Below are positions 35,324-58,621 of a stretch of 64,000 bases of DNA, piece after piece. The DNA comes from Candidatus Omnitrophota bacterium. Its GTDB lineage: Bacteria > Omnitrophota > Gorgyraeia > Pluralincolimonadales > Pluralincolimonadaceae. Where the stretch lies: the NCBI GenBank assembly GCA_028716565.1, contig JAQUPL010000008.1:13067-77066 (forward strand), in the 5' to 3' direction. The position numbers and the translations under genes are program-made. The notes below the pieces were generated by a model, which was not told the DNA's origin, made no database searches, and worked only from the letters and a program-made list of their open reading frames with translations. The first letter of the stretch is position 1; the number at the start of each line of letters is the position of its first letter.

Positions 35324-36313
35324 TTAGGTTGATTTTCTAATAACAAGTTTTGGCTCAAAAAAACGCGTGTAGTCCTTATTTTTGCCTTGGGGGATGACAT
35401 TTTTGATCAATGTCTCGGCAGCCGCAAAGGCCATATCTTTTACCGGCTGAGAAACCGTAGATAAGGAAGGAGAAAAATTTTCACAGCTCGGTATATTGTC
35501 AAAGCCGATCACAGCTATATCTTTGGGTATATCCCTGCCTGCTTGTTTAATAGCTGACATTGCCGCAAGGGCCATCCTGTCGTTTGCGGCAAAAACAGCG
35601 TCGGGAGGTTCTTTTAATGATAACAGCCTTTCTATGGTCAGTTTCTCATAATTAATATGATTATTATCATCGTTATATTCTATTATTACCTGTTTGTCCG
35701 CCTCTTGTAAAGCTTTTTTGTATCCTTTAAACCTATCTTCGGCATCCACCCAGTTCTTGTGGCCATGAATGAACGCTATCCTCTTGCGGCCGGAATCCAA
35801 TAAATACTTTGTTGCCAGATAGCCTCCCGTAACATTATCGCAGTCGAAAGAAGAAAGATCCTTAAGATGCGAACATAAAAGGACTAAAGGTACTTTTTTA
35901 TCCTGCAATCCAAGCACGTCTTTATAATTGTCTTTTCCGATAGCCGGCAAGATAAAACCTGATACTGATTTATTCAGATATGTATTCAAGCATTCAAAAC
36001 TATTAAATTTATCCTGGGTAAATAACATGACTTGATAGCCTTCTTTCTTGGCGGCTTCACTTACACCTTTGATTATTTCCTGGACATAAGGCTCCATACT
36101 AAAAAGGCCTCCTCCAAAGAAAAGAAGCCCAAGGACGTTTATTTTTCCGGAAAGAAGTCTGGCGGAATGGATATTAGGAGCGTAGGGTTCTTTTTTAAGG
36201 TAATCCAGTACCAAGGCACGGGTTTTTTCCGAAACATATTTGTCTTCCCTTAAGACCCGCGCTACGGTAAACCTTGATACCTTTAATTTTTTTCCTATTT
36301 CCCTAAGGGACAT
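35324..36313 (-). CDS. LacI-family transcriptional regulator
   Basis: N-terminal HTH (KLKVSRFTVARVLR) and a periplasmic-binding-protein-like sugar-binding core. Confidence 0.85.
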   Translation of the reverse strand: MSLREIGKKLKVSRFTVARVLREDKYVSEKTRALVLDYLKKEPYAPNIHSARLLSGKINVLGLLFFGGGLFSMEPYVQEIIKGVSEAAKKEGYQVMLFTQDKFNSFECLNTYLNKSVSGFILPAIGKDNYKDVLGLQDKKVPLVLLCSHLKDLSSFDCDNVTGGYLATKYLLDSGRKRIAFIHGHKNWVDAEDRFKGYKKALQEADKQVIIEYNDDNNHINYEKLTIERLLSLKEPPDAVFAANDRMALAAMSAIKQAGRDIPKDIAVIGFDNIPSCENFSPSLSTVSQPVKDMAFAAAETLIKNVIPQGKNKDYTRFFEPKLVIRKST

Positions 36314-36340
36314 TGAAGCCTTAATCTCTTTCTCTCCTTA

Positions 36341-36385
36341 ATTAGCTGGTTTTATTATAGGTATAATATCTTGCTATATCAAGGA
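36341..36385 (-). promoter_or_regulatory. repeat-element copy carrying a TTGATA-17-TATAAT promoter for the LacI gene
   Basis: -10 at 36359..36354, -35 at 36382..36377. Confidence 0.6.
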
Positions 36386-36388
36386 TTT

Positions 36389-39025: not shown

Positions 39026-39089
39026 ACCTTTGCTCCTTTTTATATAGATCATTTAATGATACCTCCTTTTTCATTGTTTCTCCTTATAT

Positions 39090-39135
39090 TGCCCACGTGG
39101 GCAGAGTTTAACACATAATTACCCTTTTTCAAGAT
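39090..39135 (-). promoter_or_regulatory. bglX promoter (TTGAAA-16-TAAACT) followed by a perfect 14-bp LacI-type operator TGCCCACGTGGGCA (39090-39103)
   Basis: The palindrome fits the LacI-family pattern TG....ACGT....CA. It sits at the transcription start, and a LacI gene is adjacent. Confidence 0.55.
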
Positions 39136-39181
39136 AAATTTACCGCTTTTTTTATGGGAATTCTTGGCAAGGTTATACCAA

Positions 39182-39886
39182 TTACACGATTTTTCCAAAA
39201 AGGGCACCCACGGCGGCCGTCAACGCCATTGCTAATGCTCCCCAAAACGTAACGCGAACAGCTGCTCTCGCTATGGGTGCTCCGCCGGCGAATGCCGCCA
39301 GCGCCCCTAACACCGCGAGAAAAACAAGCGTGACCCCAAAAACAACGGGAACCAATTTCGTTCCCGGTACTACAAACACGATGAGAAGCGGCATCGCTGC
39401 GCCGATAGAAAAACTCGCTGCCGATGCCCACGCGGCTTGTAACGGGTGAGCGATGAAATTAAGAGAGATGCCGAGTTCGTCACGGGCGTGTGCCGACAAT
39501 GCGTCATGGGCCATCAATTGCTCGGCGACCTGTTTTGCGAGCGGCGGATCCAGTCCCCGGCCCTCGTAGATTGACGCCAGCTCCCTGTGCTCGTTTTCAT
39601 TATCTACATCGAGTTCCTTGCGCTCGCGCGCCAGGTCTGCTCTTTCGGTATCGGCCTGTGAGCTTACCGATACGTACTCGCCGGCCGCCATTGACATCGC
39701 CCCTGCGACCAAACCGGCGACGCCGGCGACCAATACTGAACCTCTGGACGCGTGAGCTGCAGCTACGCCCACAATGAGGCTTGCGGTCGACACTATCCCA
39801 TCGTTCGCACCCAAAACTGCGGCACGTAACCAACCAATCCGGTACGTACGATGATGTTCCCTATGACTACTTTTGGCCGCAACCAT
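39182..39886 (-). CDS. VIT1/CCC1-family iron/manganese transporter
   Basis: GANDGIVSTASLIVGV motif, two blocks of TM helices, and an acidic middle loop. Confidence 0.75.
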   Translation of the reverse strand: MVAAKSSHREHHRTYRIGWLRAAVLGANDGIVSTASLIVGVAAAHASRGSVLVAGVAGLVAGAMSMAAGEYVSVSSQADTERADLARERKELDVDNENEHRELASIYEGRGLDPPLAKQVAEQLMAHDALSAHARDELGISLNFIAHPLQAAWASAASFSIGAAMPLLIVFVVPGTKLVPVVFGVTLVFLAVLGALAAFAGGAPIARAAVRVTFWGALAMALTAAVGALFGKIV

Positions 39887-39924
39887 TATATCTTCCTTTC
39901 AGCCGAGGGGAAACCTTTCTAATT

Positions 39925-40010
39925 TAGCCGGTTTTATTATAAAGGTAATATTTTACCATATCAAGGATTATTGGGGATCAGGGAGGGATTTCCTTGCGGA
40001 ATTTGAGCAC
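39925..40010 (-). promoter_or_regulatory. repeat-element copy carrying a TTGATA-17-TATAAT promoter for the VIT gene
   Basis: -10 at 39941..39936, -35 at 39964..39959. The right end GGGGATCAGGGAGGGATTTCC is homologous to other copies. Confidence 0.6.
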
Positions 40011-40084
40011 CTTGAGCTTTTATCTGGCGAAATCCTGTGAAGCAGGACGTCCGTTTTGTCCGGGCATCGGCCGATCATTATATC

Positions 40085-40240
40085 TTATTTCTTTTCTTTG
40101 GTCTCCTCTTTTTCTTTATCTTGATTTTTCTTATCTTTCCTAGCGTCAAGATTACCTCTAACTATTACATAGATAAAAAATAATGCTGCAAAGCCCAAAA
40201 GAACATAAACCGGCCAATCTTTTGATAAATTAATTCCCAT
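40085..40240 (-). CDS. small membrane peptide (51 aa: one TM helix plus K/E-rich tail), not in ORF track
   Basis: ATG at 40240 preceded by AAAGGAGG. Sequence MGINLSKDWPVYVLLGFAALFFIYVIVRGNLDARKDKKNQDKEKEETKEKK. Confidence 0.3.
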   Translation of the reverse strand: MGINLSKDWPVYVLLGFAALFFIYVIVRGNLDARKDKKNQDKEKEETKEKK

Positions 40241-40255
40241 AGATAAATACCTCCT

Positions 40256-40390
40256 TTATTTTGATCTTTTCTTTGTCTTCTTCCCTTCTCCGTCAAGACC
40301 TTTTTCAAATATTCTTCTAAAGCAGAAAACCCCCAAGCCTAAAATGAATGTCCAGGAAATAATTAGAAATATCCAACCGCTCGGTTTCAA
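40256..40390 (-). CDS. small membrane peptide (44 aa, TTG start: one TM helix plus basic tail)
   Basis: GGAGGA lies 7 nt upstream of TTG at 40390. Sequence ..KPSGWIFLIISWTFILGLGVFCFRRIFEKGLDGEGKKTKKRSK. The track's longer version overlaps treT and is unlikely to be real. Confidence 0.3.
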   Translation of the reverse strand: MKPSGWIFLIISWTFILGLGVFCFRRIFEKGLDGEGKKTKKRSK

Positions 40391-40410
40391 ATATAGGTCC
40401 TCCTTATTAT

Positions 40411-41622
40411 TTATAAATAAACTATATCCTCCGGATGATATAACGAAAGAAATAATAACATATACTCTTTCAAATGGCGCGTTATCAGAAAATTGTTCCT
40501 TACGTGCTCTTTTCCGTTCTCGCCTAATTTGCGGGCATAATCCGGGCTGCTCAAGAGCTGTTTTACGGCAAAACTCGCCCCTTCGACGGAATGACAAAGT
40601 AGTCCCGAATATTTATGCGTTATCTGCAATGGTATGCCGCCGACGTTGGATGCTACAACCGGTTTCGCTTTCCATAAGGCTTCGGAGACTGTAAGGCCAA
40701 AACCTTCTCTTAAAGATTTCTGCAAGATCACCGCTGAAGCTCTTTGAAGCGCGTTTATTTCAATATCGTTCTGCGCAAGCAAAAGCACATGTATATCTGG
40801 GTCGCCTTTTGCGGCCTCTTTTACTTCAAGCAGAACTTCCGCGCTCTCCGGGTCATCCGAGGCCCCTCCTCCCGCAAGAATTAGCCGGCAATCGGCGTAT
40901 CTCTTTACCTGCCTGTATACCTTTAAAACTCCCAGAGGATCCTTCAACCTGTCAAAACGCGATATCTGCGTGATTATAGGCTTATCTTTCGGAATTTCGT
41001 ATTTATTTAATACCGAATCTATCGTCTCCTGTGAAAGCTCCTTATTTTTGTCGCTTAACGGATCGATCGAGGGAGATATCAGAAATTGCCTTATTGGCAA
41101 TTTCTGGGAGAAGGCCGGAGCTGAAAAGACTGCCGCATCATATTTATCGATATAACCCCTAAGAAATCCCCAGACATCCTGATTCGGCTCGGAGACATCT
41201 ACGTGGCAACGCCAGACCCATTTATTTTCCTTCCTCTTGTCAACCAGGACCACGGGCTGGGGATCGTGAATAAATACGATGTCTCCGTAAGTATCCAGCT
41301 CTTCCATATTCATGCGGCTTGTTTCCAGGAATATATCGAAATCCTTTTTTGAAATTTCCACGTTGACTCCGTGAAGAGCATTGTGGAAATTCTTGGTGAC
41401 CTCGAAAAACTGCTCTCCCCCTTTTATCAGGTCCCACCGCGCGTCTACCCCGAGCTCTTTTAAGAGGGGTATCATCCTGTTCAGTATCTCCGCCACGCCT
41501 CCGCCGACCGAGGTTGAATTGATATTCTGGATCACCTTGCCTCTTAACCTCTCGGCAAGAAGCCTTAGGTCGTCTATTGTCGGCTGTCCCACGATAGGGA
41601 TATATTCGTCTATTTTCCCCAT
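40411..41622 (-). CDS. treT: trehalose glycosyltransferring synthase (TreT-type, GT4)
   Basis: Strong similarity to archaeal and bacterial TreT: NSTSVGGGVAEIL, WRCHVDVS, PSIDPLSDKN, IITQISRFD, DDPES, ILQKSLREGFGLTVSEALWKAKPVV. Confidence 0.8.
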   Translation of the reverse strand: MGKIDEYIPIVGQPTIDDLRLLAERLRGKVIQNINSTSVGGGVAEILNRMIPLLKELGVDARWDLIKGGEQFFEVTKNFHNALHGVNVEISKKDFDIFLETSRMNMEELDTYGDIVFIHDPQPVVLVDKRKENKWVWRCHVDVSEPNQDVWGFLRGYIDKYDAAVFSAPAFSQKLPIRQFLISPSIDPLSDKNKELSQETIDSVLNKYEIPKDKPIITQISRFDRLKDPLGVLKVYRQVKRYADCRLILAGGGASDDPESAEVLLEVKEAAKGDPDIHVLLLAQNDIEINALQRASAVILQKSLREGFGLTVSEALWKAKPVVASNVGGIPLQITHKYSGLLCHSVEGASFAVKQLLSSPDYARKLGENGKEHVRNNFLITRHLKEYMLLFLSLYHPEDIVYL

Positions 41623-41623
41623 A

Positions 41624-42295
41624 TCAGGCCGGCATCCTTCTCTTGATTATCCCGATCACTTTATCCCTTAAACCCTCCAGGGTAAAAGTATAAGGATCAA
41701 GCTGAGATATCTCCCTTGCCATCCGCTCATCGCCGACCGAATTCATTATCCAATTCGAAAAATCGTTCGTATTTTTTTCAAGCCTCAGGCGCGCCTCAAA
41801 GACGTGATAATAAATGGAATCTATGGTTATCTTATCTAAAATATCTATGAAATCCTTCAAATCATACGCTTCATATTTGGTCGGAAGCACGAAGCTTACC
41901 GACTTCACGAAATGGAATTCGTCGCCTTCCCCCGCGAACCTGATCTTTGCCGTCGGGTTCTCGGCCAGATACGACTCGATCACCTCGACCAGCTTCTCCC
42001 TTAAGCTGCGGATAGTATTAAACTGTATGACGTCTATGCTCGCCAGCTTCTCTCCTAACTCATCATCGCCCATTACCTCTGTCACCCAATACGCAAAATC
42101 GTTCGGCGGTTCCGGCGAAAGGTGCTGGTGCTGCTGCAGGAACCTGTGAGTATGGTGATATATGCAGGAACCGTTCACCACTTTCATAAGCTCGAGCAAT
42201 TGCCCTAAGGTCGAGGCCCTCAATCCGGTTAACTCGGAAAGATGCATCCTCGTATAGAATCTAAAGGATTCTCTTGCTTTCCGTATCTCTGCCAT
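41624..42295 (-). CDS. hypothetical protein conserved within the trehalose cluster (223 aa)
   Basis: No recognisable motifs. It is tightly packed between otsB and treT, with a 1-nt gap to treT. Confidence 0.45.
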   Translation of the reverse strand: MAEIRKARESFRFYTRMHLSELTGLRASTLGQLLELMKVVNGSCIYHHTHRFLQQHQHLSPEPPNDFAYWVTEVMGDDELGEKLASIDVIQFNTIRSLREKLVEVIESYLAENPTAKIRFAGEGDEFHFVKSVSFVLPTKYEAYDLKDFIDILDKITIDSIYYHVFEARLRLEKNTNDFSNWIMNSVGDERMAREISQLDPYTFTLEGLRDKVIGIIKRRMPA

Positions 42296-43097
42296 GTTCC
42301 TGTTCCTTCTTTAAACCGTTAACCATCCTTAAGAACTTCAATACATCCTTGTGGCTCTTAAGATAATATTTCGCTTTGGACTTCTTAGGCATGCCTACAA
42401 ATATGGTCAAACTCTTTTTCCTTAAGGCCGAAAAAGCGTCCTCGTCGGTCACGTCATCGCCTATATAAACCGGCAATACCGGATCCCCTCCCGACACGAA
42501 TACCTGCCTTGCGAGAAGCCACATCACAGATCTCCCCTTGTCCCATTCAATGGGAGGCCTTACTTCCAGTATCATCTTCCCGGTATTTATCTTTATCTTA
42601 TTGCCGACCAAATAATATATTATCGCCTCGTGGAACGCCGTTTTGACTAAATGGATATTATCCTCATTTACCAGGCGGTAATGCACGCTTAACGTACAGC
42701 CCTTGTCTTCCAGTATGACGCCTTTTATATGAGCGAGCCTTCTGAGCAGATCGAGTTTTATTTTCCTGACTATCTTTTTAAAGCCCGAGGGGACGACGCT
42801 TTCGAATTTCAATTTAGGCCCTTCGATCTCCAGGCCATGGTTGCCGGAATAGATGATGTTTTTTAAGCCGACGACGCTCTTTATGTCCTTCAATGACCGG
42901 CCGCTGATTACGGCAAGCTTACACCCCCGGTTCTTTGATAATTCATACAATATATCCCTGGCTTCTTTAGAAAGAACTGCTCTATCCGGAGTGTCTGCGA
43001 TGGAGGTCAATGTTCCATCGTAGTCTAAAAAAAGTATAATGCGGCTATTTCTCAGATCTTCCTTTAAATGACCCCAATGATTAAAAAGATACTTCAT
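42261..43097 (-). CDS. otsB: trehalose-6-phosphate phosphatase (HAD superfamily)
   Basis: ILFLDYDGTLT (DxDGT), SGRS and GDDVTDED HAD motifs. Start MKYLF at 43097 overlaps the upstream stop as ATGA. Confidence 0.8.
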   Translation of the reverse strand: MKYLFNHWGHLKEDLRNSRIILFLDYDGTLTSIADTPDRAVLSKEARDILYELSKNRGCKLAVISGRSLKDIKSVVGLKNIIYSGNHGLEIEGPKLKFESVVPSGFKKIVRKIKLDLLRRLAHIKGVILEDKGCTLSVHYRLVNEDNIHLVKTAFHEAIIYYLVGNKIKINTGKMILEVRPPIEWDKGRSVMWLLARQVFVSGGDPVLPVYIGDDVTDEDAFSALRKKSLTIFVGMPKKSKAKYYLKSHKDVLKFLRMVNGLKKEQEHGRDTESKRIL

Positions 43098-44149
43098 ATC
43101 CAGAAAACCGCTAAAAAATATCCCAGCATTAGTATGAGCCCTAAGGGTATCCCTAATCTGGCCCAAGCCCGGCTGGGGATATTTAGCTTTCCCGCTGCGA
43201 TGATATTAGGGATATTCCCGGGGATAAGCATCCCTCCTGAGACCAGCAAGCCCATAAGTATCGCCCGAATATGTCCTATATCCATCTTTGGCGTGATCTC
43301 GGCGGCGGTTAAGGTCGCGTTATCCAGAATAGCCGAAACGATGTTGAGCCAATACAGCCCTTTAGCCGACATCTGGACTACATAGGCGTCTATAATAGGC
43401 TTAAATCCCTTGCCTAAAAAAATCAAAGCCATCACAAAAAGATAAACTTTACCCGCGCGGATAAAAATGTCTTTTACTATCTCCGGCCTGTCTTCGGCTA
43501 AGGTCGTCTTTTCGGAGATTTTGGGTCTTATAAATGTGGCCAAAAAACCCAGGACCAGGATTCCCGGTAAAATATATAATCCCAGTAATTTCACCAAAAA
43601 CCAAAAATCGGCATTAAAAGGGGGCCCTTTCAATTTGGATATAGCGATCGTAGACAAAGGTTCGCCGATCGGAGTGAGGGCGGCTCCCAATCCTATGGAA
43701 AAACAGGCTATGACCACAAAATTAGTTTCGGTCTTTTTGTCAAATTTCATCCCGGTAACCAGTTCCACTAAAACCAAAGAAGCGATGATCGCAGTGATCG
43801 CGCTTGACATGACCCCCAATAATACCACGACCAAAAAGAATACCCATTTAACCCCTATTTGACGGATAACTTTACTAATTGTCGACCGTATGCGGTCCCT
43901 GACATAACGGAAGAGCAACCCGGCCACCAGTACCGCAACGCTGATCTTTATCGGCTCGACCAATGCCTCATAGACCAAATGTTTACTCCACAATTGAGAG
44001 ATCGTCACCGCCGATAAACCCATGACAAAAAGAAAAATCTCTAAATCCCGCTCTATTCTCTTTACCAGGAAAGGCAGGACAAATACCGTTACGATTATCC
44101 CGGCAAGCCCCCACATGATCCAGGCAGATAAGACTATTTTTTCGGTCAA
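43094..44149 (-). CDS. DUF1646-like polytopic membrane protein (predicted cation transporter)
   Basis: About 10 TM helices. The family assignment comes from general resemblance only. Confidence 0.4.
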   Translation of the reverse strand: MTEKIVLSAWIMWGLAGIIVTVFVLPFLVKRIERDLEIFLFVMGLSAVTISQLWSKHLVYEALVEPIKISVAVLVAGLLFRYVRDRIRSTISKVIRQIGVKWVFFLVVVLLGVMSSAITAIIASLVLVELVTGMKFDKKTETNFVVIACFSIGLGAALTPIGEPLSTIAISKLKGPPFNADFWFLVKLLGLYILPGILVLGFLATFIRPKISEKTTLAEDRPEIVKDIFIRAGKVYLFVMALIFLGKGFKPIIDAYVVQMSAKGLYWLNIVSAILDNATLTAAEITPKMDIGHIRAILMGLLVSGGMLIPGNIPNIIAAGKLNIPSRAWARLGIPLGLILMLGYFLAVFWI

Positions 44150-44173
44150 TTTATTCTCCCGGTGCGCCTATTT

Positions 44174-46408
44174 CTAACTTTTTTTCAGCGCCGTCAGTTC
44201 TGTAATTATATTGCCTGCCCAGCGGTACACGTTATTTTCTGTAACTATTTTACGCATGTTTTCCATGCGTTTTTTCCTCTCTTCGGCAGGCATTTCCACC
44301 GCAAATTTTATGGCGTCGGCGAATTCTTCTATAGAATAAGGATTTATCTGGACCGCGTCTGTCAGTTCCCTCGCGGCCCCCGTAAAACGGCTCAGGACCA
44401 AAACGCCGTCCAGATTCTTATTTGAGATAACATATTCCTTTGCTACCAGATTCATCCCGTCATGCAGGGAACTCACGATGCAAACATCCGCTAAAGCATA
44501 ATACGGCTTGATCTCTTCCGGAGAAAAATGCCTCTTTAAGTATATGATCGGTTTCCAGTTCCCGTCATAATGCTTCCAGTTGACTTTCTCGACCGCCTCA
44601 TCTATCTCCGCCATCAGGTCATGGTAGCGCTTTATATGGATCCTGCTTGGAGCTGCCAATTGAAGAAAAACAAACTTACCTTTATATTGAGGATATTTCT
44701 CCAAAAACCTGTCTATGGCGGACATCCTTTCTATTAGTCCCTTCGTGTAGTCGATCCTCTCCACCCCGACAGCGACTATCTTGCCTTCCAGCTCAAATTC
44801 CTTAGATAATTCGTCTATTTCAGCTAAATCCTGCTTAGTAGTCTCACCCATATAAGTATCTACGCTTATCGGGAAGGCGCGGACAAAAGTCTCTTTTCCG
44901 GCCCGTACTATGCTAAATTTTTCCGTGTCAACGCGGGATTCGAGAAGCCTGTTTGCAGTATCGAGAAAATTATTGCAGTGATATTGCACATGAAAACCTA
45001 TCAAATCACAAGCTAACATTCCATCCAGAATTTCTTTTTGATAGGGGCAGGTAGCGAATATCTCGGGATTCGGCCACGGTATATGCCAGAATAGCGCTAC
45101 GGTCGCGTTAGGTTGTTTTTCCTTTATCATCTTAGGAAGAAGCGTAAAATGATAATCCTGAATAAAGACAAGGGGATTTTTCGCGGGCAACTCTTCCAAG
45201 ACGGCGTCGGCAAATTTCTGGTTTACTTCCTTGTACATCTGCCAGTCGGACTCCCGAAATAGGGGCCGAGTATGGGTAATGTGACAAAGCGGCCATAATC
45301 CTTCATTGGAAAAACCATAGTAATAACCCTGCTCTTCCTCTTTTGTCAGCCAGACTCTTTTGAGAATATAACGGTTATCTTCAGGCGGAACGGCTAGTTT
45401 GTTCTTGGAGTTTACAAATTTTCTGTCCGCATTCCCGCTTCCGTGAGCGATCCATGTCCCGCCGCAAGCCTGCAATATGGGGTCTACGGCGGTAACAACG
45501 CCGCTTGCAGGCCTAATACACCTGGTTTCCCCGCTTGTGTCCTCGATGACATGCATATAAGGTTCCCTGTTTGAGACCACGCATAAAGCGTTTTCGCCTA
45601 ACTTGGCAAGGACAACGTTTCGGAGCTTTGCTTCTGTCCACAAATCCTCATTCTCTAAGCGAACTTGAGCTTCACCGGAGATTGTTTTACGCGCGATCCT
45701 TAAACTCAAAGCTATCTGCTCGACTTCACTGGCAAGTTTTCCAAACGCGCCTTTTTCTTTCGTTATCGGATGCTGTTTGTCTATCTCGCCTTTTTGAAAA
45801 AGATGGAACCACTCGGTAAGCTGGAGAACGGGCAAAATAAATATCCGCCTCTGCAGCAACACCATGATTAACGTGATAGATACGACCAAAATTATCAGGG
45901 CAGTGCTTACATGCCTCCATAGCTCCGTCAGCGTCGTAAAAACATACGAGGTATCGTAAACAACCTCTACCACACCCAAAACATTTTTTTCGTCATCCAG
46001 AACAGGAAGGACGTAGCTGTACACGGAATATTCCTTGAATTTTTCCAGCGCTCCGCGGGGATTTTTCGTCTCCAATGCTTCTTTAATATAAGGCTTGTCT
46101 TTCTGTCCCCAATCGGATATCCTGGAGGTGATCGACAATACTTTGCCATCCTTGTCGTAAATCACGCATCCCTGGAGCCTTTCTCTCTTTTGAAAGCTTT
46201 CCGTAAGACGGTTAGTCGATCTTAAGTCGTTGTTGATCAAAACGTACTTTACGGATAATTCGGTGCTTTCGGCAACAGTTTTTGCCTTTCTTTGAAGGTC
46301 ATCCATCAACTTGCCTTCTTCAAAATTAACTTGCACTATGCCGAATACCGTAAAGACCAAGGCAACGATGATCAGGATCGGTAAAATAAACAATAGTATT
46401 CGTCTCAT
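44174..46408 (-). CDS. otsA: membrane sensor-HAMP-OtsA fusion: TM1, roughly 140-aa extracytoplasmic domain, TM2, HAMP-like linker, then alpha,alpha-trehalose-phosphate synthase (GT20)
   Basis: Residues 1-190 carry two hydrophobic helices flanking a periplasmic-type domain. Residues 190-250 form an amphipathic HAMP-like segment. From about residue 330 there are classic OtsA motifs (GFSNEGLWPLCH, FIQDYHFTLLP, LHDGMNLVAKEY). Confidence 0.8.
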   Translation of the reverse strand: MRRILLFILPILIIVALVFTVFGIVQVNFEEGKLMDDLQRKAKTVAESTELSVKYVLINNDLRSTNRLTESFQKRERLQGCVIYDKDGKVLSITSRISDWGQKDKPYIKEALETKNPRGALEKFKEYSVYSYVLPVLDDEKNVLGVVEVVYDTSYVFTTLTELWRHVSTALIILVVSITLIMVLLQRRIFILPVLQLTEWFHLFQKGEIDKQHPITKEKGAFGKLASEVEQIALSLRIARKTISGEAQVRLENEDLWTEAKLRNVVLAKLGENALCVVSNREPYMHVIEDTSGETRCIRPASGVVTAVDPILQACGGTWIAHGSGNADRKFVNSKNKLAVPPEDNRYILKRVWLTKEEEQGYYYGFSNEGLWPLCHITHTRPLFRESDWQMYKEVNQKFADAVLEELPAKNPLVFIQDYHFTLLPKMIKEKQPNATVALFWHIPWPNPEIFATCPYQKEILDGMLACDLIGFHVQYHCNNFLDTANRLLESRVDTEKFSIVRAGKETFVRAFPISVDTYMGETTKQDLAEIDELSKEFELEGKIVAVGVERIDYTKGLIERMSAIDRFLEKYPQYKGKFVFLQLAAPSRIHIKRYHDLMAEIDEAVEKVNWKHYDGNWKPIIYLKRHFSPEEIKPYYALADVCIVSSLHDGMNLVAKEYVISNKNLDGVLVLSRFTGAARELTDAVQINPYSIEEFADAIKFAVEMPAEERKKRMENMRKIVTENNVYRWAGNIITELTALKKS

Positions 46409-46412
46409 ATGA

Positions 46413-47438
46413 TTATCCCTTCATTTCAATGCGTGTCCGCGGTAAACATTCGGGGAAGCGTCGTTGTAAAAACTCCACAAGATTTTCCCTGACTTCACAA
46501 CGTAAGTCCCACATAGCGGGAGAATCCGCTGCGCTCATAAGCGCCCGCAACTCGACTGTTTTGTCAGTTACATTGGTAACCTGCAGCGCATCGACCTTTT
46601 TATCCCACTTTGTGCTGTTTTTGAGAATACGCGTTAATTCATTACGGACTTCTTTCACGGGTACGGTGTAATCGGTATAGATAAGAACAGTTCCCAGTAA
46701 ATCTGCTGAAGTCCGCGTCCAATTCTGAAATGGTTTTTCGAGAAAATATGATATGGGGACTACCAAACGCCTCAGGTCCCAAATACGCACTACCACAAAA
46801 GTGAGGGTAATTTCCTCGATCCAGCCCCATTCATCCTCGATAATGACCACATCATCCAGCCTAATTGGCTGGGCAATGGCTATCTGAATGCCGGCGATGA
46901 GATTCCCCAGCGTTTTTTGCGCGGCAAAACCTATAACTACCCCGACAATTCCTGCCGAGGCCAATATGCTTACACCTATATGCCTGACTTGCGGGAAACT
47001 CATCAGCATAAAGGAAACGGTTAACAAAACTATGACCACGATCATGATATTGGCGATCACGCGCATTTGCGTATGCATACCACGAGCACGCACATTGTCC
47101 CGAACCGTGATATCATAACGGTTCAAAAACGCATCGCGAAGAATATAGACAATCTTAATAGCGACCCAACCAAACAACGCAATAAGCAGGATATAGATAA
47201 AATGGCCGATAAAGCCGCGCGCCTTTTCCGGTAGACGTAATAAAGGGATGACCCCCGCGATACATAAAGCTGGTATCAAAAAACGTAACGGACTTTTGAG
47301 AAGCCCCAGGTTGACCTTAAACAATTTTAAGGAAATAGTATCCCGCCGTTTAATTAAAAATGCAGCAAAAAAATAAATTATACAACCGACAATAAAGCTA
47401 GAGGCTATTAAAATGCCCGAAAACAAATAATCATTCAT
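46413..47438 (-). CDS. small-conductance mechanosensitive channel (MscS family)
   Basis: Three TM helices, then the conserved MscS beta-domain (GNLIAGIQIAIAQPIRLDDVV). Confidence 0.85.
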   Translation of the reverse strand: MNDYLFSGILIASSFIVGCIIYFFAAFLIKRRDTISLKLFKVNLGLLKSPLRFLIPALCIAGVIPLLRLPEKARGFIGHFIYILLIALFGWVAIKIVYILRDAFLNRYDITVRDNVRARGMHTQMRVIANIMIVVIVLLTVSFMLMSFPQVRHIGVSILASAGIVGVVIGFAAQKTLGNLIAGIQIAIAQPIRLDDVVIIEDEWGWIEEITLTFVVVRIWDLRRLVVPISYFLEKPFQNWTRTSADLLGTVLIYTDYTVPVKEVRNELTRILKNSTKWDKKVDALQVTNVTDKTVELRALMSAADSPAMWDLRCEVRENLVEFLQRRFPECLPRTRIEMKG

Positions 47439-47442
47439 GATT

Positions 47443-48897
47443 TTAAATCCTTTCTCGAGTCAGTCTGTCGAGGATCGCACGCAGCGATACCAGCCCGATA
47501 GTCGTCTGTTGGTCGTTTAACGCGTAAGGGATAATAAGCGTATCGCTATGGACCATTGCTCCGCACGAATAGACGACGTTCGGAACATACCCCGAACGAC
47601 TATTATCCTCCCAATGAATAAGCGGTTCGCTCAACCGGCCAATTACACGCGAAGGATCTTCGCGGTCAAGCAGGGCAGCGCTGATCGAATATTGGCGCAT
47701 CGGCCCGACGCCGTGGGTTAGGAGCAGCCACCCGCGGTCGGTCTCTATCGGAGAACCGCAATTCCCTATCTGCACGAACTCCCATGGATATAATGGACTC
47801 ATTAATGGAACGGCCTCATGCCAGAAATGGATATTATCGGAATACATAAGGAAAAGGTTCTCGTTATCGTTCCGGGAAACCATCGCGTAACGGCCATTTA
47901 TCTTGCGCCGGAACAAAGCCATCCCCTTATTGACCGCCGCCCTGCCGTTCAAGGTGATCATTTTAAAACGGATAAAATCTTCCGTCTCCATTATTTGCGG
48001 CAGGATAACCCTGCCGTCATACGCCGTATATGTGGCGTAATATTTCCCGCTTCCATCATCATTCTTAAAATATACGAAACGCGCATCCTCCATACCGTTC
48101 TGCTCGCTTGGAGAAAGCGGGAACAGGACGCGTTCTGAAAGCGGGAACTTCGGATCGAAAGTAGCTTCATAATTACATCGTGCCAGCCACAAGATCTTTT
48201 CGCAGGTAAGTTTGTCTGTCTGGGTTATCGGATGATGGCCTGCAGTGTAATCCCTGACCTTCTCTTCCAGCTGCTCCATGGTAAACTTTTCCGGTAACGG
48301 GTCCGTAATGTATTTTGAGCAGTTATTCTCCAGCCCCATTTCATAGAGTTTTCCGATGAAACACATCTTATCATAAAGAGCGCTCGGTTTCGGTTCGGCG
48401 GTACACGCGAGACCGGAAGTTTTGTCAATCGATACAGTTCCATATTTGTCTATGAGCCCCGAACGGAACACTAATGTAGATATCTGCCCCTCGCCTGTGG
48501 CGCGCAAAGAAATAATAAAACGCAGGGATCCTTCGGAAACCCCGGATTGGTCGGGATGCGCTACAATAGAAGGATTGAAGAGACCCGTTGATTCATATGA
48601 ACGCTCGCCGATGAAGTACGCTCCTATGAGAAGCCTGCGCGTTTTAGAGGGTGCAAAATCGGGAGGCATATATGCGCAGATGACCTCGAACTGGCGCTCA
48701 AGGATAGAATCAAAATTATGGTGTCGCGCTGAAAAATCCCGTACGGTCTTCTTCAATTCTTCTTCCGCGGCGGACTCGTCAAGAGCCATAATGCGCGAGA
48801 CGATCCCCGGGACGCGTGATTGATTCCCTGGAATGTACGGCCTGATGATGACGCGCCCGCTATCAGGGGCGATGACTATACCGGTATTCTTTATCAT
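47443..48897 (-). CDS. two-domain protein: unknown roughly 250-aa N-terminal domain plus GH130-family (beta-propeller glycoside phosphorylase/transferase-like) C-terminal domain
   Basis: C-terminal DARFVYF ... YYATYTAYDG and further GH130-like motifs. Confidence 0.6.
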   Translation of the reverse strand: MIKNTGIVIAPDSGRVIIRPYIPGNQSRVPGIVSRIMALDESAAEEELKKTVRDFSARHHNFDSILERQFEVICAYMPPDFAPSKTRRLLIGAYFIGERSYESTGLFNPSIVAHPDQSGVSEGSLRFIISLRATGEGQISTLVFRSGLIDKYGTVSIDKTSGLACTAEPKPSALYDKMCFIGKLYEMGLENNCSKYITDPLPEKFTMEQLEEKVRDYTAGHHPITQTDKLTCEKILWLARCNYEATFDPKFPLSERVLFPLSPSEQNGMEDARFVYFKNDDGSGKYYATYTAYDGRVILPQIMETEDFIRFKMITLNGRAAVNKGMALFRRKINGRYAMVSRNDNENLFLMYSDNIHFWHEAVPLMSPLYPWEFVQIGNCGSPIETDRGWLLLTHGVGPMRQYSISAALLDREDPSRVIGRLSEPLIHWEDNSRSGYVPNVVYSCGAMVHSDTLIIPYALNDQQTTIGLVSLRAILDRLTRERI

Positions 48898-51173
48898 TCC
48901 TCCAAGGGCTCCTTAAGACTTTCGAGAACATTTTCCATCTCTGTCATCTCGGTCAGGGAAAGAAGAAATGAAAGCGTAGATTCAGCGCCTTGATTGCGGT
49001 TCACCCTGTTAATGTGAAGCCCGTCGCAGCATCCGCCCGTCACCGGGTCATATAGTGAAATGCCGAGATCGTTGCTACCGAGGAACCACTGAAAAACATT
49101 TAAGGCTTCCTCGTACCACATCTTGTCTTTTGTTACGCGATAGGCATCGAGGCATGCCGAAACGGTAGCATAGGCTTCCACCGGTTGCTGGTCAAAGACA
49201 GGCTTGACCCCGCCGCGAATGTATTCGCCATCCGTGCCTACCGGCTGGAAATGGCCGCGGGACGAGGTCTGTACCTTCGTAAGCCAACTTAAAGACTCAA
49301 CCCCGGATCTCAGCATCTCTTCGTTATCGAGATCGTGTCCGCTTAACAAAAGGGCATGGGGTAATTTGGCGTCGCAATACGTCAGGGATGATTCAAACCA
49401 TCGCCATTCCGCATCGCTATTTGCCTTGTAAAGATCGTGAAGCCGAGCAGCGAGTGTCTGCAGGCAGTTGCGTGCGAGCCTGTCCCCGTGAAAACGCTGC
49501 AGATATTCATGTATACCTAGCAATATGAAAGCCCATGCGCGCGGCGAAGTAAACGACACCGAAGGGGCAAGCGCCTTTTCGAATAACTCGACCGACATCT
49601 GGGTAAAACCTTCATTTTTTGACCGCCCGATGCAGGTACCGATAGCCCATATCGCCCTACCGTGGCAATCTTCGCTGGACGTTTCTTCTTTCCAATTTCG
49701 CTGGAAGGTCAGGAAATTCCTGAACCGTACCATGGAGGGATCCCACGCGTATTTGACAAACCCGAGGTAACGGCTCGAGAGATCGTTGATCTTAAGAGGA
49801 TTTATGGTACCGAGGTTCTCAAGCAGGACGGTCAGGATGAGCGCCCGCGCATTGTCGTCTGTGCAATACCCTTCGGAAAAGTTGGGGACATTGAACGTGG
49901 CATGCTGGAAGATCCCGATGGAATCGGTCATCCTTACGAGATGATCTAGCTTGATATCGGGCAATACGGGAACCTGTTGTTCAAGAGGATACATCGTCAC
50001 CTTCTTTTGCGTCGCTGGAGAACGTTTCATTTTTGCTTCTTCAAAGATCGACGTATATTTTGACGCAACATTGCTCCATATCATCTCGCGGCCTAAAAGA
50101 TAGGCATTCTTGCGCATCGTATTACGTTCGTTTTCATTGACGATAAGCCTTGTAACCGCCTGCCCTATCGCTTCCGGATCGTTGAACGGTACAAGAATGC
50201 CCCTGCCGTCGCTGAGCAGTTCGGCGGCATGCCAGTATGGGGTCGAGATTACCGCGTTTCCTACGCCGAACGAATAGGCAAGGGTCCCGGAAACTACCTG
50301 CGCTTCTTCAAAATACGGGGTAATATAAATATCGGCGAGCACGAGCAACTCTTTAAGTTCTTCAGAAGATACGAAACGATTATGAAAAATGACATTACGC
50401 GAGATCTCAAGCTCATCGCAAAGACGTTGTAAAAAAAGCCTGTATGATTCACCCTCGTGTCTTAATAGATTGGGATGCGTAGCGCCGACGACTATGTATA
50501 CGGTGCTCGGACGCTCTTTTATGACTTTGGGAAGTGCGCGCAGGACTACCTCTATCCCCTTGCGCGGAGAAAGCAGCCCAAACGTAAGGAGCACGGTCTT
50601 GCCCTCAACCCCATACTGGTCTTTATAGAAATTCGGGTCGATGAAAGAAACGTCGGGTATCCCGTGCGGGACCAGCCGTATCTTAGATCCGTGTATCTTA
50701 TTTACTGCCTGAAGGATGTCGGCAGCCTTTTGCGTCATTACGACCGCATAATCAGACAGGCCAAGCAATTCATCCATAACGCGTCTCTGGCGCGCGGACG
50801 GATTTTTCAGTACCGTATGCAGGGTCGTTATTATGGGCATCTTCAATTGGCGTAATAAAGCCAATATATAACCGCCTGCGTCGCCTCCAAAAATACCGAA
50901 TTCGTGCTGAAGACAGACAACATCGATGTCGTTGAGGTTGAGGAAATCCGCTGCGGCTTTGTACGAGTCTATATCCTGCTCCTTGATCTCGAAACGTACG
51001 CGTTCCGGATAATCGTAACCTTCCTCGATATCCGTGACAGGTATCGCGAATACCTGGACAGAAGGGTTCAAGGCCGCGAACGCCTCGCAGATATCCGTGG
51101 TAAAAGTCGCGATGCCGCAGCGTCTGGGAAGATAATTTCCTATGAACGCTATCTTTTTGATATCATTGGCCAT
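48894..51173 (-). CDS. GT4-family glycosyltransferase fused to a C-terminal (alpha/alpha)6 glycosidase-like domain
   Basis: The N-terminal roughly 390 aa carry GT4 motifs (E-x7-E region, GGIPE-like). The C-terminal roughly 370 aa form a six-hairpin-like domain. The gene overlaps the GH130 start by 4 nt. Confidence 0.7.
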   Translation of the reverse strand: MANDIKKIAFIGNYLPRRCGIATFTTDICEAFAALNPSVQVFAIPVTDIEEGYDYPERVRFEIKEQDIDSYKAAADFLNLNDIDVVCLQHEFGIFGGDAGGYILALLRQLKMPIITTLHTVLKNPSARQRRVMDELLGLSDYAVVMTQKAADILQAVNKIHGSKIRLVPHGIPDVSFIDPNFYKDQYGVEGKTVLLTFGLLSPRKGIEVVLRALPKVIKERPSTVYIVVGATHPNLLRHEGESYRLFLQRLCDELEISRNVIFHNRFVSSEELKELLVLADIYITPYFEEAQVVSGTLAYSFGVGNAVISTPYWHAAELLSDGRGILVPFNDPEAIGQAVTRLIVNENERNTMRKNAYLLGREMIWSNVASKYTSIFEEAKMKRSPATQKKVTMYPLEQQVPVLPDIKLDHLVRMTDSIGIFQHATFNVPNFSEGYCTDDNARALILTVLLENLGTINPLKINDLSSRYLGFVKYAWDPSMVRFRNFLTFQRNWKEETSSEDCHGRAIWAIGTCIGRSKNEGFTQMSVELFEKALAPSVSFTSPRAWAFILLGIHEYLQRFHGDRLARNCLQTLAARLHDLYKANSDAEWRWFESSLTYCDAKLPHALLLSGHDLDNEEMLRSGVESLSWLTKVQTSSRGHFQPVGTDGEYIRGGVKPVFDQQPVEAYATVSACLDAYRVTKDKMWYEEALNVFQWFLGSNDLGISLYDPVTGGCCDGLHINRVNRNQGAESTLSFLLSLTEMTEMENVLESLKEPLEE

Positions 51174-51237
51174 CTTGTCTATCTCCGGCTACAAATAAAG
51201 AACCATCTGATTTTTCGTCAGATGGCGGCCCGACCAT
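51163..51237 (-). promoter_or_regulatory. leader ORF (24 aa, SD GGAGGA) spanning a terminator-like hairpin (CCATCTGA-7 nt-TCAGATGG plus U-tract, 51193-51225) and ending inside the GT4 start: candidate attenuator
   Basis: Hairpin stem at 51203-51210 and 51218-51225. The U-tract UUCUUUAUUUGU follows on the minus strand, and the GT4 SD GGAGAU and ATG come immediately after. Leader ATG at 51237, stop TGA at 51165..51163. Confidence 0.4.
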
Positions 51238-51354
51238 CAAAAATCCTCCGAAAATATGTTTTCTATTCTCGGACCCTTTTAATTACTTCATAAGTATAAC
51301 ATATTTTTTTTGAAAAACAACCTTTAATCGCGGCGTGGACGGAAGAAATAAAGG

Positions 51355-52698
51355 CTATATTCTCCCCTTGATGATTTTGATTATTCTCAATAACATCCCC
51401 GTAAGACTCTTCCTTCTCGGATGGTATTCAGGATAAAGCTCTTCGATAACCTTCCCCGTTTCCACTTCTATGGATGAGGATTTCTTTACAGCGAGGACTT
51501 GGGACGGGTAAACACTTCTATGGCCGGTCATCAGAAAGCTTATAATACACCCTAGAGTGGCGTAAGGAGCTACGGTGGGCCCAAAGAGTTCGACCGCCAT
51601 AATACTTGCCGCTATAGGCGTATTAGCTGCCCCCGCTAATAGGCTGACCATGCCGATCGCGGCGAAAGTCGCTACATCAAGGCCTAAGAATTTCGCAAAT
51701 ACCACCCCTGCTGCCGAACCGACAAAAAATATCGGCGTAACTATGCCGCCGCTTCCGCCAAAATTAAGCGTAACGCTTGTGAAAATTATCTTTAATATAA
51801 ACGCGTACCAGATAATATTCACCCCTTGCAGGCAGGATTGGATTGTATCCAAGCCGAGGCCGAGATATTGTTTCGAAAATATCAGCGCCAGGACTACAAT
51901 GGCAAAACCGCCGATAAGACCTTTTAACGGCTTCCATACCCTGACCTTATTCGAAAGCTTTTCGGCTAATTTCAATATCTCTATCATGAACGCGGCGCAT
52001 AAGCCGAAAAAGATTCCGGATAAGACTACTTTAATAAAAAATGCGTTGCTGAAGATGGGAATGAGATTTATCTGGCCATGAAAATAAGTTATTCCAAGGG
52101 ACGAGGAAACGTGGTAGCTGATTATTCCTGCTATAAAAGAGGGCAAAAGGACGTCATATAATATACTGCCTACAAAAAGCACTTCGACGCCGAATATAGC
52201 GCCGGCTATGGGTGTGCCAAAAACCGAAGCGAAACCGGCGCTTATGCCGCATATGACCAGTTTTCTCCTGTCTTTGTCGTCAAATCTAAAAATATCCGCG
52301 GCAACGGAGGAAAGCCCGCCTCCTATTTGAGCGCACGGTCCTTCCTTCCCCGCCGAGCCCCCTGCCGCTATAGTAATGATCGTCGTGATAAGCTTGACGG
52401 GGATGACCGCTGCTTTTATCTTTCCTGCGTGCTTATGTACAGCTTCGATAACCTTCTCTGTCCCATGGCCTTCGGCGTCAGGCGCCAGATATTTGATCAT
52501 TAGGGCACTTAAAAACAACGCGAGTGGCAGTATAAGGAAATAATAGTTATACTTCCCGCTAAATGCCGTGCTCCAGTTCAGCATCTTCAAAAACAGGGTC
52601 GTAGACAAGCCGACAATGATCCCTATGAATGTCGCAAGGACGACCCATTTTATGATACTGATAAAAAGGACTGTTTCTTCCGCTAATCTTCTTCTCAA
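51355..52698 (-). CDS. ClC-family chloride channel / H+:Cl- antiporter
   Basis: GSGIP-like, GKEGP and GxFxP-type selectivity motifs. 447 aa with about 10-12 helices. TTG start. Confidence 0.8.
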   Translation of the reverse strand: MRRRLAEETVLFISIIKWVVLATFIGIIVGLSTTLFLKMLNWSTAFSGKYNYYFLILPLALFLSALMIKYLAPDAEGHGTEKVIEAVHKHAGKIKAAVIPVKLITTIITIAAGGSAGKEGPCAQIGGGLSSVAADIFRFDDKDRRKLVICGISAGFASVFGTPIAGAIFGVEVLFVGSILYDVLLPSFIAGIISYHVSSSLGITYFHGQINLIPIFSNAFFIKVVLSGIFFGLCAAFMIEILKLAEKLSNKVRVWKPLKGLIGGFAIVVLALIFSKQYLGLGLDTIQSCLQGVNIIWYAFILKIIFTSVTLNFGGSGGIVTPIFFVGSAAGVVFAKFLGLDVATFAAIGMVSLLAGAANTPIAASIMAVELFGPTVAPYATLGCIISFLMTGHRSVYPSQVLAVKKSSSIEVETGKVIEELYPEYHPRRKSLTGMLLRIIKIIKGRI

Positions 52699-58612: not shown

Positions 58613-58621
58613 GCAGGCCTC

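Follow-up and report, generated by a model that had tools for sequence, protein, structure and literature searches.

A probable cation-riboswitch-controlled osmoadaptation operon combining two trehalose routes, a receptor-type OtsA and a GT4/GH130 cassette in an Omnitrophota bacterium

We analyzed a 64,000-nucleotide (nt) stretch of DNA from Candidatus Omnitrophota bacterium (assembly GCA_028716565.1, contig JAQUPL010000008.1, positions 13,067 to 77,066), hereafter the window, focusing on a run of minus-strand genes at window positions 40085-51173 and on the RNA leader in front of them. The window also matches contig JAQTRV010000003.1 of assembly GCA_028711645.1, from an Omnitrophota metagenome, and NCBI names its proteins Candidatus Omnitrophota/Omnitrophica. 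An earlier sequence-only reading of this DNA had proposed an eight-gene operon that unites two trehalose pathways, a mechanosensitive channel and glycoside-metabolism enzymes. Our analysis suggests that the region is probably a single osmoadaptation operon of ten genes, controlled by a cation riboswitch and probably triggered by Na+.

In transcription order, the first gene (48894-51173) encodes a 759-amino-acid (aa) fusion of a GT4 glycosyltransferase with an (alpha/alpha)6 domain, identified by Pfam GT4/GT1 matches, PDB sequence matches and AlphaFold (AF2) modeling combined with Foldseek searches. Next come a 484-aa GH130-like protein (47443-48897; Pfam PF04041 and PDB matches), a 341-aa MscS channel (46413-47438; Pfam MS_channel_2nd) and a 744-aa sensor-OtsA of the GT20 family (44174-46408; Pfam GT20 and dCache_3, AF2 and Foldseek). 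The DUF1646 membrane protein (43094-44149; Pfam PF07854) precedes OtsB (278 aa; 42261-43097; TIGR00685 and Pfam Trehalose_PPase), OrfY/DUF5752 (223 aa; 41624-42295; Pfam PF19027 and PDB 4cso) and TreT (403 aa; 40411-41622; Pfam TreT_GT1 plus GT1, PDB 6zj4/2x6q). Two small genes close the series, each behind an AGGAGG ribosome-binding site: smA (44 aa; 40256-40390), recognized by reading the sequence, and sm51 (51 aa; 40085-40240), a gene call in the source record. All ten lie on the minus strand.

All eight open reading frames (ORFs) of the sequence-only reading were recovered at the same coordinates, and the set grows to ten with smA and sm51, the latter ending at 40085, where that reading had drawn its left border. 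The earlier family calls for TreT, OtsA, OtsB, DUF1646, MscS, GH130 and GT4 were matched by Pfam, NCBIfam and PDB searches, and the 223-aa protein that had been left as unknown is OrfY/DUF5752. The riboswitch, the putative Cache-HAMP sensor on OtsA, the identity of OrfY and the smA/sm51 genes are all new relative to that reading.

The nine junctions measure, in transcription order, -4 (ATGA), +4, +4, +24/+57, -4 (ATGA), -35, +1, +20 and +15 nt. The spacing described earlier, junctions of 4-nt or ATGA type, therefore holds for five of the seven junctions among the original eight genes. The GH130-like and MscS genes are separated by only 4 nt, OtsB and DUF1646 share an ATGA overlap, and OrfY and OtsB overlap by 35 nt; with junctions from -35 to +57 nt, there is no room for internal signals, which argues for co-transcription. 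OtsA and OtsB are not adjacent, the DUF1646 gene lying between them. The same ten-gene order occurs in a sister species (locus L089). Because this order is shared and 62 of 80 related loci have the same core of four genes, as detailed below, the arrangement is not a matter of chance.

A gap of 181 nt separates the first operon gene from the upstream ClC gene, and a regulatory RNA lies inside it, just beyond the 5' end of the coordinates covered by the sequence-only reading (40085-51173). Rfam searches identified an aptamer of the nhaA-I class (Li+-I / Na+-II-like; RF03057) with stems P1 and P2 at 51220-51276 on the minus strand. At 53 bits the match exceeded the gathering score (37 bits), with E = 1e-7 over the window and coverage of model positions 1-55 of 55, and it was the sole Rfam match in the 64-kb window. 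Our own covariance model, built from 42 riboswitch copies, scored the window aptamer at 66.9 bits. Compensatory changes were present in 10 of the 14 pairs across these 42 homologous copies, and the core GGUCGGGCCGCC was invariant or nearly so.

A terminator scan placed an intrinsic terminator at 51192-51226 (minus strand), consisting of a 9-base-pair stem (51226-51202) and a U-tract; the 5' side of this stem doubles as the 3' side of P2 in the aptamer. The two folds are thus mutually exclusive: folding the full leader gave P1 plus the terminator, and folding the aptamer alone gave P1 plus P2. The same overlap of terminator and P2 was found in 44 related copies examined with their downstream flank. 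By this predicted folding, the leader has the layout of an ON-switch expression platform. Upstream, we read from the minus-strand sequence a promoter-like site at 51293-51320, with TTGTTT (51320-51315) and TATACT (51298-51293) separated by 16 nt; it is a plausible promoter, and its -35 hexamer TTGTTT is too weak for listing by a consensus scan.

The RNA class carries a known ambiguity of ligand. RNAs of the nhaA-I class are Li+-selective ON switches (PMC9646797, White et al. 2022), and rare variants with a terminator platform, reported only from Deltaproteobacteria and named Na+-II, are activated by Na+ and weakly by Li+ (PMC9646797). The window RNA shares with both groups the aptamer architecture, the core and the ON-switch layout. 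With the published Na+-responsive D. propionicus RNA it has in common the terminator platform and the base of P1 (GGGUCC...GGAGG, that is, the UCC/GGA base of P1). The Na+ variant of D. propionicus is marked by a C at "position 54" (PMC9646797), whereas the window RNA lacks the C equivalent to nucleotide 54 of that construct (GCCGGGCC) and carries a U at the specificity position (GGUCGGGCC; GUCGGGCC), as do nearly all Omnitrophota copies and as in Li+-I. The window RNA therefore differs from both published groups in mixing Na+-II-like features with the Li+-I U, and it differs from the Na+-II examples in residing in Omnitrophota, in heading a probable ten-gene operon and in apparently forming part of a multi-locus regulon.

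This mixture bears directly on the possibility that the locus mounts a response to Li+ toxicity, in which a genuine Li+-I riboswitch induces trehalose synthesis and transporters against Li+ damage. The validated Li+ selectivity of the Rfam class and the U typical of Li+-I both speak for it, and Li+-regulated trehalose synthesis has itself been raised as a possibility by White et al. (PMC9646797). The same authors, however, offered as an alternative that such switches might be Na+ variants with a role in trehalose-related osmotic stress (PMC9646797). MscS, ClC, DUF1646, two trehalose routes and envelope proteins make up a gene set for a salt or osmotic response, the P1 base and terminator platform resemble the Na+-responsive variant, and nhaA, the hallmark Li+ exporter, is not attached. 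We consider the Li+ explanation quite unlikely, and judged from the genes controlled, Na+ is most likely the riboswitch ligand.

The link of this riboswitch class to otsA, mscS and DUF1646 was already recorded in 2022, though not analyzed: among 944 associated genes in a supplementary table, otsA appears 16 times, glycosyl transferase 5, DUF1646 4 and mscS 3 (PMC9646797). A comparable regulatory logic is known from Na+-I riboswitches, which govern osmoprotectant genes and Na+ transporters including DUF1646 (PMC9337991). There, as proposed here, high cytoplasmic Na+ switches on solute synthesis together with Na+ transporters including DUF1646; the differences are that Na+-I is another RNA class and that its solute is beta-lysine or beta-glutamate, whereas the solute here would be trehalose. 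No Rfam match to a Na+-I riboswitch was obtained before the DUF1646 gene even at E <= 10, the OtsA-DUF1646 gap measuring 24-57 nt.

The trehalose enzymes form the center of the operon. The GT20 domain of OtsA (44174-45598) matched PF00982 with 408 bits over profile positions 3-472 of 473 and aligned with PDB structures of OtsA at E = 3.5e-82. It scored 431.8 with the OtsA model TIGR02400 vs 319.5 for glucosylglycerol-phosphate synthase, and the best-scoring named models were OtsA or bifunctional trehalose-6-phosphate synthase/phosphatase (TPS/TPP). OtsB clears its equivalog cut-off (TIGR00685, 175.8 vs 68.05). TreT combines PF21269 TreT_GT1 (182.8 bits) with a GT1 C-terminal domain in Pfam and aligned at full length (residues 3-394) with 6zj4 at E = 1e-124 and with P. 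horikoshii TreT (2x6q) at E = 4e-102.

OrfY matched PF19027 (DUF5752) with 231.7 bits against a cut-off of 23, and at full length it matched PDB 4cso, termed "OrfY protein, transcription factor" by its depositors, at E = 1.6e-23. Its identity across the 80 related loci is 64-84%, compared with 39-84% for OtsB; this conservation above that of OtsB points to a constrained role. OrfY also has an apparent internal duplication (IYHHTHRF...PPNDFAYWV and IYYHVFEARL...TNDFSNWI), and its HHTHR motif is invariant over 21 aligned homologues. Our literature search found no paper on DUF5752. A TreT and OrfY pair was reportedly described by Kouril in 2008 for the unidirectional, synthetic TreT pathway of T. 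tenax. As in that Thermoproteus cluster, TreT adjoins OrfY/DUF5752 in the window; the difference is that the pair is here joined to OtsA-OtsB, across a whole bacterial phylum and with a 35-nt overlap between OrfY and OtsB.

The type of TreT matters for a further explanation, namely that trehalose is a carbon reserve or a cold or desiccation protectant and that TreT works degradatively, converting trehalose and nucleoside diphosphate (NDP) to NDP-glucose and glucose in a cycle of synthesis and recycling. TreT of Thermococcales is reversible, which counts for such a cycle. The use of sugars to make trehalose or glycogen has also been described from Omnitrophota genomes (PMC8542988). The window TreT, however, is nearest to the Thermoproteus type (6zj4) and is paired with OrfY, and its neighbors, a cation riboswitch, MscS and DUF1646, suit salt stress. 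Storage or recycling is in our assessment the least likely of the explanations considered.

OtsA itself has the architecture of a membrane receptor. Its residues 1 to ~270 (45599-46408) comprise a transmembrane (TM) helix, a single Cache domain, a second TM helix and a predicted HAMP domain, the two hydrophobic helices flanking the Cache-like domain. The Pfam match of the Cache domain is weak (dCache_3, 28-31 bits). The AF2 model of the sensor reached a predicted local distance difference test score (pLDDT) of 84, and Foldseek aligned it with a full-length WalK model over 258 columns at E = 7e-11 and also with the extracellular domains of WalK/YycG, DcuS, CitA and KinD. The input module thus resembles that of WalK/DcuS/CitA-type sensor kinases (TM, single Cache (PDC), TM, HAMP), whereas the output is a GT20 glycosyltransferase in place of a kinase core. 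On the strength of this modeled fold, the enzyme is probably gated by its sensor.

Querying 1.84 billion representatives in full with HMMER yielded 505 clusters of sensor relatives, and of ten long ones tested, nine carried GT20 and one HisKA-HATPase (histidine kinase). By this distribution, the sensor-OtsA fusion is old and not confined to Omnitrophota. Acidobacteriota contain sensor-OtsA fusions of ~760 aa (P0486, and the cluster of P0358) whose sensors are 23-30% identical and which are annotated as trehalose-6-phosphate synthase. A literature search on OtsA-HAMP fusions found nothing relevant.

The remaining products are membrane proteins. MscS matched PF00924 at E = 2e-13 over residues 176-242 and has a hydrophobic N-terminal half; by these features, the product of 46413-47438 is an MscS-family channel with its beta-domain after transmembrane helices. 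It scored under all NCBIfam MscS equivalog cut-offs. DUF1646 matched PF07854 with 394 bits and has two possible starts, a TTG at 44149 with GGGAGA as its ribosome-binding site and an ATG at 44116; the family is a proposed Na+/H+ antiporter (PMC9337991, PMC9646797). The smA protein has a single TM helix and a lysine-rich tail, and its TTG start lies 8 nt after the AGGAGG; homologues occur just after TreT in 21 other loci and have their own riboswitch copy in some loci. The sm51 protein likewise has a single TM helix, with a lysine/glutamate-rich tail, and homologues downstream of TreT in 11 loci.

To assess the conservation of this arrangement, we searched GTDB species, each represented by a single genome, with an alignment of DUF5752 and examined the best 80 of at least 569 loci, all of which belong to Omnitrophota or mislabelled relatives. 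OtsB lies directly upstream of DUF5752 in 79 of the 80 loci, and TreT lies directly downstream in 74. OtsA is present in 65 loci and carries the N-terminal sensor in 53, and OtsA, OtsB, DUF5752 and TreT occur together in 62. Judged from this synteny, the conserved core consists of OtsA (mostly with the sensor), OtsB, OrfY and TreT, usually headed by the same riboswitch and often with MscS between. A DUF1646 gene between OtsA and OtsB was found only in the window, L002 and L089, and a GT4/GH130 pair at the trehalose module only in the window and L089. The idea that the pair belongs to the conserved trehalose module was rejected, since the other 79 loci lack it, apart from one distant GT4f_C match (L052). 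DUF1646 and the GT4-(alpha/alpha)6 plus GH130-like pair thus appear to be recent, lineage-specific additions.

Running the covariance model over 1.23 Mb of related loci returned 52 riboswitch copies, every one on the gene strand. In 18 loci a copy immediately precedes sensor-OtsA on its 5' side, and in a further 11 a single gene, encoding an MscS from either of two subfamilies, intervenes. Counted over all the loci, at least 13 besides the window have an MscS of the window's subfamily or the second one between riboswitch and OtsA. In the sister L089, the sole riboswitch lies farther upstream, before CNNM-CBS (CorC-like) and DUF502 genes (L089 129-1787), so that these two and the same ten genes would make a twelve-gene unit. 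Other riboswitch-headed genes encode P-II-like, OmpA-LysM and Band-7/SPFH proteins, a peptidoglycan-binding lipoprotein and ClC (L017 11901-12223; L029 43-462; L016 2528-3615; L079 615-1717; L030 228-707; L032 11901-13417), and copies also precede smA/sm51-type ORFs. The distribution of copies suggests a multi-locus regulon for cation and envelope stress.

The first two genes of the window operon form a cassette of their own. Residues 1-385 of the GT4 fusion are a PimA-like GT4 (Pfam; PDB sequence matches to PimA and YPO2471). Residues ~395-759 were modeled as an (alpha/alpha)6 barrel (AF2; pLDDT 70.6, predicted template-modeling score 0.77), so that the earlier (alpha/alpha)6 call for the C-terminal half is backed by a structure model and a fold search. 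Foldseek ranked 7tem first (the closest structure, YPO2471), followed by the AGE family (cellobiose 2-epimerase/mannose isomerase), GH9 and GH76; no Pfam family matched this domain, which is placed by fold search alone, giving no activity.

The C-terminal domain of the GH130-like protein (residues ~250-480) matched PF04041 with 95.3 bits against a cut-off of 26, and no Pfam family matched the N-terminal 250 aa. The protein aligned with the beta-1,2-(oligo)mannan phosphorylases 9fj8 and 7fip at E ~ 1e-31, with GMEDARF/GLEDPRI, NKG/NKD, SR/HR and THGV/YHGV or YHAA in corresponding positions. These segments contain the ED motif and basic residues to which the GH130 literature assigns roles in the phosphorylases. 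Equivalog cut-offs were not reached (135.9 vs 450 for beta-1,2-mannobiose phosphorylase; 117.3 vs 550 for another model). Compared with the characterized GH130 phosphorylases (Teth514_1788/1789, Lin0857; PMC4264767), the C-terminal domain aligns and the ED motif and basic residues are kept; the differences are the extra 250-aa N-terminal domain and the obligate GT4-(alpha/alpha)6 partner, the GH130-like protein being paired with the GT4 fusion at every locus examined.

The cassette is self-contained. It occurs with unrelated neighbors in a Chlorobiaceae metagenome-assembled genome (MAG), a Thermoplasmatales archaeon, a Kiritimatiellae MAG and others, and its identity to the window across phyla (L082, L083/L084, L085, L088) is 67-82% for the GT4 fusion and 52-77% for the GH130-like protein. 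Such identity is unusually high between domains of life and implies, as far as sequence comparison can tell, recent horizontal transfer together with strong constraint. In other Omnitrophota (L086, L087, L090) the stand-alone cassette is riboswitch-led, and a 92-aa cupin of mannose-6-phosphate-isomerase type lies between riboswitch and cassette in L086 and L087, reduced to a 14-aa cupin remnant in L090; the window has no cupin gene. Because the window leader resembles the cassette leader of L086/L090 and L090 keeps only a remnant of the cupin, the window riboswitch was probably the cassette's own originally. Fusion to MscS-OtsA through the 4-nt junction would then have placed the trehalose module under the cassette riboswitch.

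These observations must be weighed against the possibility that the region is not one unit and that the GT4/GH130 pair is an unrelated mobile glycan cassette, for envelope or storage, linked to the trehalose genes by adjacency alone. The pair is missing at 79 of the 80 related trehalose loci and has unrelated neighbors in Chlorobi, Thermoplasmatales, Kiritimatiellae and other Omnitrophota, as such a cassette would. Since the stand-alone cassette of Omnitrophota also follows the riboswitch, however, it shares the regulon of the trehalose genes without being linked to them; in the window the cassette lies 4 nt from MscS, with no separate leader for the trehalose module, and L089 keeps the fused order. 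Both proteins, moreover, are without signal peptides. We therefore regard linkage by adjacency alone as unlikely.

Regarding the product, the PimA-like GT4, the GH130 domain and the cupin are three independent hints of mannose chemistry, and the cassette probably acts on mannosides. The synthesis or turnover of a second glycoside in the cytoplasm is its most likely role. The suggestion that the pair serves a second glycosidic solute is thus strengthened by the riboswitch-led stand-alone pair, though it falls short of proof. A more far-reaching proposal, possible but doubtful in our estimate, is that the cassette, joined in some genomes by the small cupin, is an uncharacterized two-enzyme route to a cytoplasmic, salt-induced mannose glycoside or short beta-mannan, exchanged between Bacteria and Archaea (~70% identity) and recruited in Omnitrophota under the riboswitch, and that Cache-HAMP-OtsA is a one-component "receptor enzyme" through which an external or membrane signal gates trehalose synthesis without a kinase.

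Taken together, these findings fit the following model of a single, probably Na+-triggered operon. The transcription start would lie ~100 nt before the first gene, so that the nhaA-I-class aptamer is transcribed ahead of the coding sequences. When ligand is absent, the 3' strand of P2 would pair downstream into the intrinsic terminator and transcription would stop; when a cytoplasmic cation rises (most likely Na+, possibly Li+ or NH4+), P2 would be stabilized, the terminator blocked and all ten genes transcribed. The OtsA/OtsB route would convert uridine diphosphate (UDP)-glucose and glucose-6-phosphate to trehalose-6-phosphate and then to trehalose, and the TreT/OrfY route would form trehalose from NDP-glucose and glucose. 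DUF1646 would probably export Na+, MscS would act as an emergency release valve on down-shock, and the two small membrane proteins smA and sm51 would add to the output. OtsA would be anchored in the membrane behind its WalK-like sensor, so that an extracytoplasmic or membrane signal probably gates the enzyme post-translationally. The GT4/GH130 cassette, riboswitch-led when separate, would have been fused in front in the window lineage.

Several observations weigh against this model. The organism is uncultured, and the reading is drawn from sequence. The U at the specificity position combined with the P1 base and platform of the Na+ variant makes the ligand unreadable from the RNA itself, and the C-to-U mutant (M4) of the D. 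propionicus RNA responded to Li+, Na+ and NH4+ (PMC9646797). A riboswitch within reach is missing at ~20 of the 53 sensor-OtsA loci, including the MscS-OtsA loci L032 and L037; its link to sensor-OtsA appears frequent and not obligatory. OtsA scored under its equivalog cut-offs (TIGR02400, 431.8 vs 564.85; NF011071, 482.5 vs 634), and it appears to be a divergent member for which trehalose-6-phosphate synthase activity is the expected function. TreT scored under the Thermococcales equivalog NF041139 (384.8 vs 775), a low score that is consistent with a TreT of Thermoproteus and not Thermococcales type. Pfam found no HAMP in the N-terminus of the window OtsA even at E <= 10, and the domain is proposed there from Pfam matches in homologues and from the fold. 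The terminator scan gave no clear minus-strand terminator 3' of sm51, and the one marker of where the operon ends is the VIT1 promoter-like site (39964-39936). The co-expression of two trehalose routes lacks an explanation.

The proposal that solute synthesis and solute release are encoded in one unit was supported by our analysis, and the cation-sensing riboswitch at its head adds independent sequence evidence for a salt-stress response. The Li+, adjacency and storage/recycling explanations are each less well supported than a cation-controlled osmoadaptation operon.

The closest precedent is the msc-gt-tpsp operon of T. tenax, an experimentally studied "synthesize, then release" stress model, in which solute would be made under stress and let out through the channel once the stress is relieved (PMC3634074, Zaparty et al. 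2013), and whose arrangement was called unique to Thermoproteales by its authors (PMC3634074). A trehalose-6-phosphate synthase route, a GT4 and an MscS-type channel are common to both; the genes are co-transcribed in T. tenax, and in the window the MscS, GT4 and TPS-route genes are co-directional and tightly packed, the window GT4 being likened to the T. tenax GT by family only. The T. tenax system differs in being archaeal and in having a fused TPS-TPP, whereas OtsA and OtsB are separate in the window with DUF1646 between them, and the window adds the membrane sensor on OtsA, the TreT-OrfY pair, DUF1646 and the riboswitch.

Two features of the surroundings were also recorded. The ClC chloride channel gene directly upstream (51355-52698, minus strand) has its own strong promoter-like site at 52879-52852; a ClC homologue is riboswitch-controlled in L032 and lies beside the trehalose module in five other loci (in L037 with only a degenerate riboswitch copy upstream). 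Base composition is mosaic: G+C is 44-46% over most of the operon (compared at 40000-48000) and 55-57% in the GH3/LacI flank and the asparaginase/Asp-Al exchanger flank (36000-40000 and 56000-60000).

The single elements of this locus are known; what sets it apart is the way they are combined, together with the hybrid riboswitch, the receptor-OtsA and a cross-domain cassette linked to the riboswitch. The locus offers a testable case of an RNA cation sensor set over a whole osmoadaptation program, from the synthesis of solutes and the export of ions to a safety valve, in an uncultured phylum. It bears on the question left open by White et al. in 2022 of why otsA stands behind some "lithium" riboswitches (PMC9646797), and window-type RNAs, with their mixture of Li+-I and Na+-II traits, are well suited to mapping the determinants of ion selectivity. 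The analysis also points to two other leads: a widespread membrane-receptor OtsA that is annotated merely as "trehalose-6-phosphate synthase", and a highly conserved, cross-domain GT4/GH130 cassette that its riboswitch would tie to salt stress.

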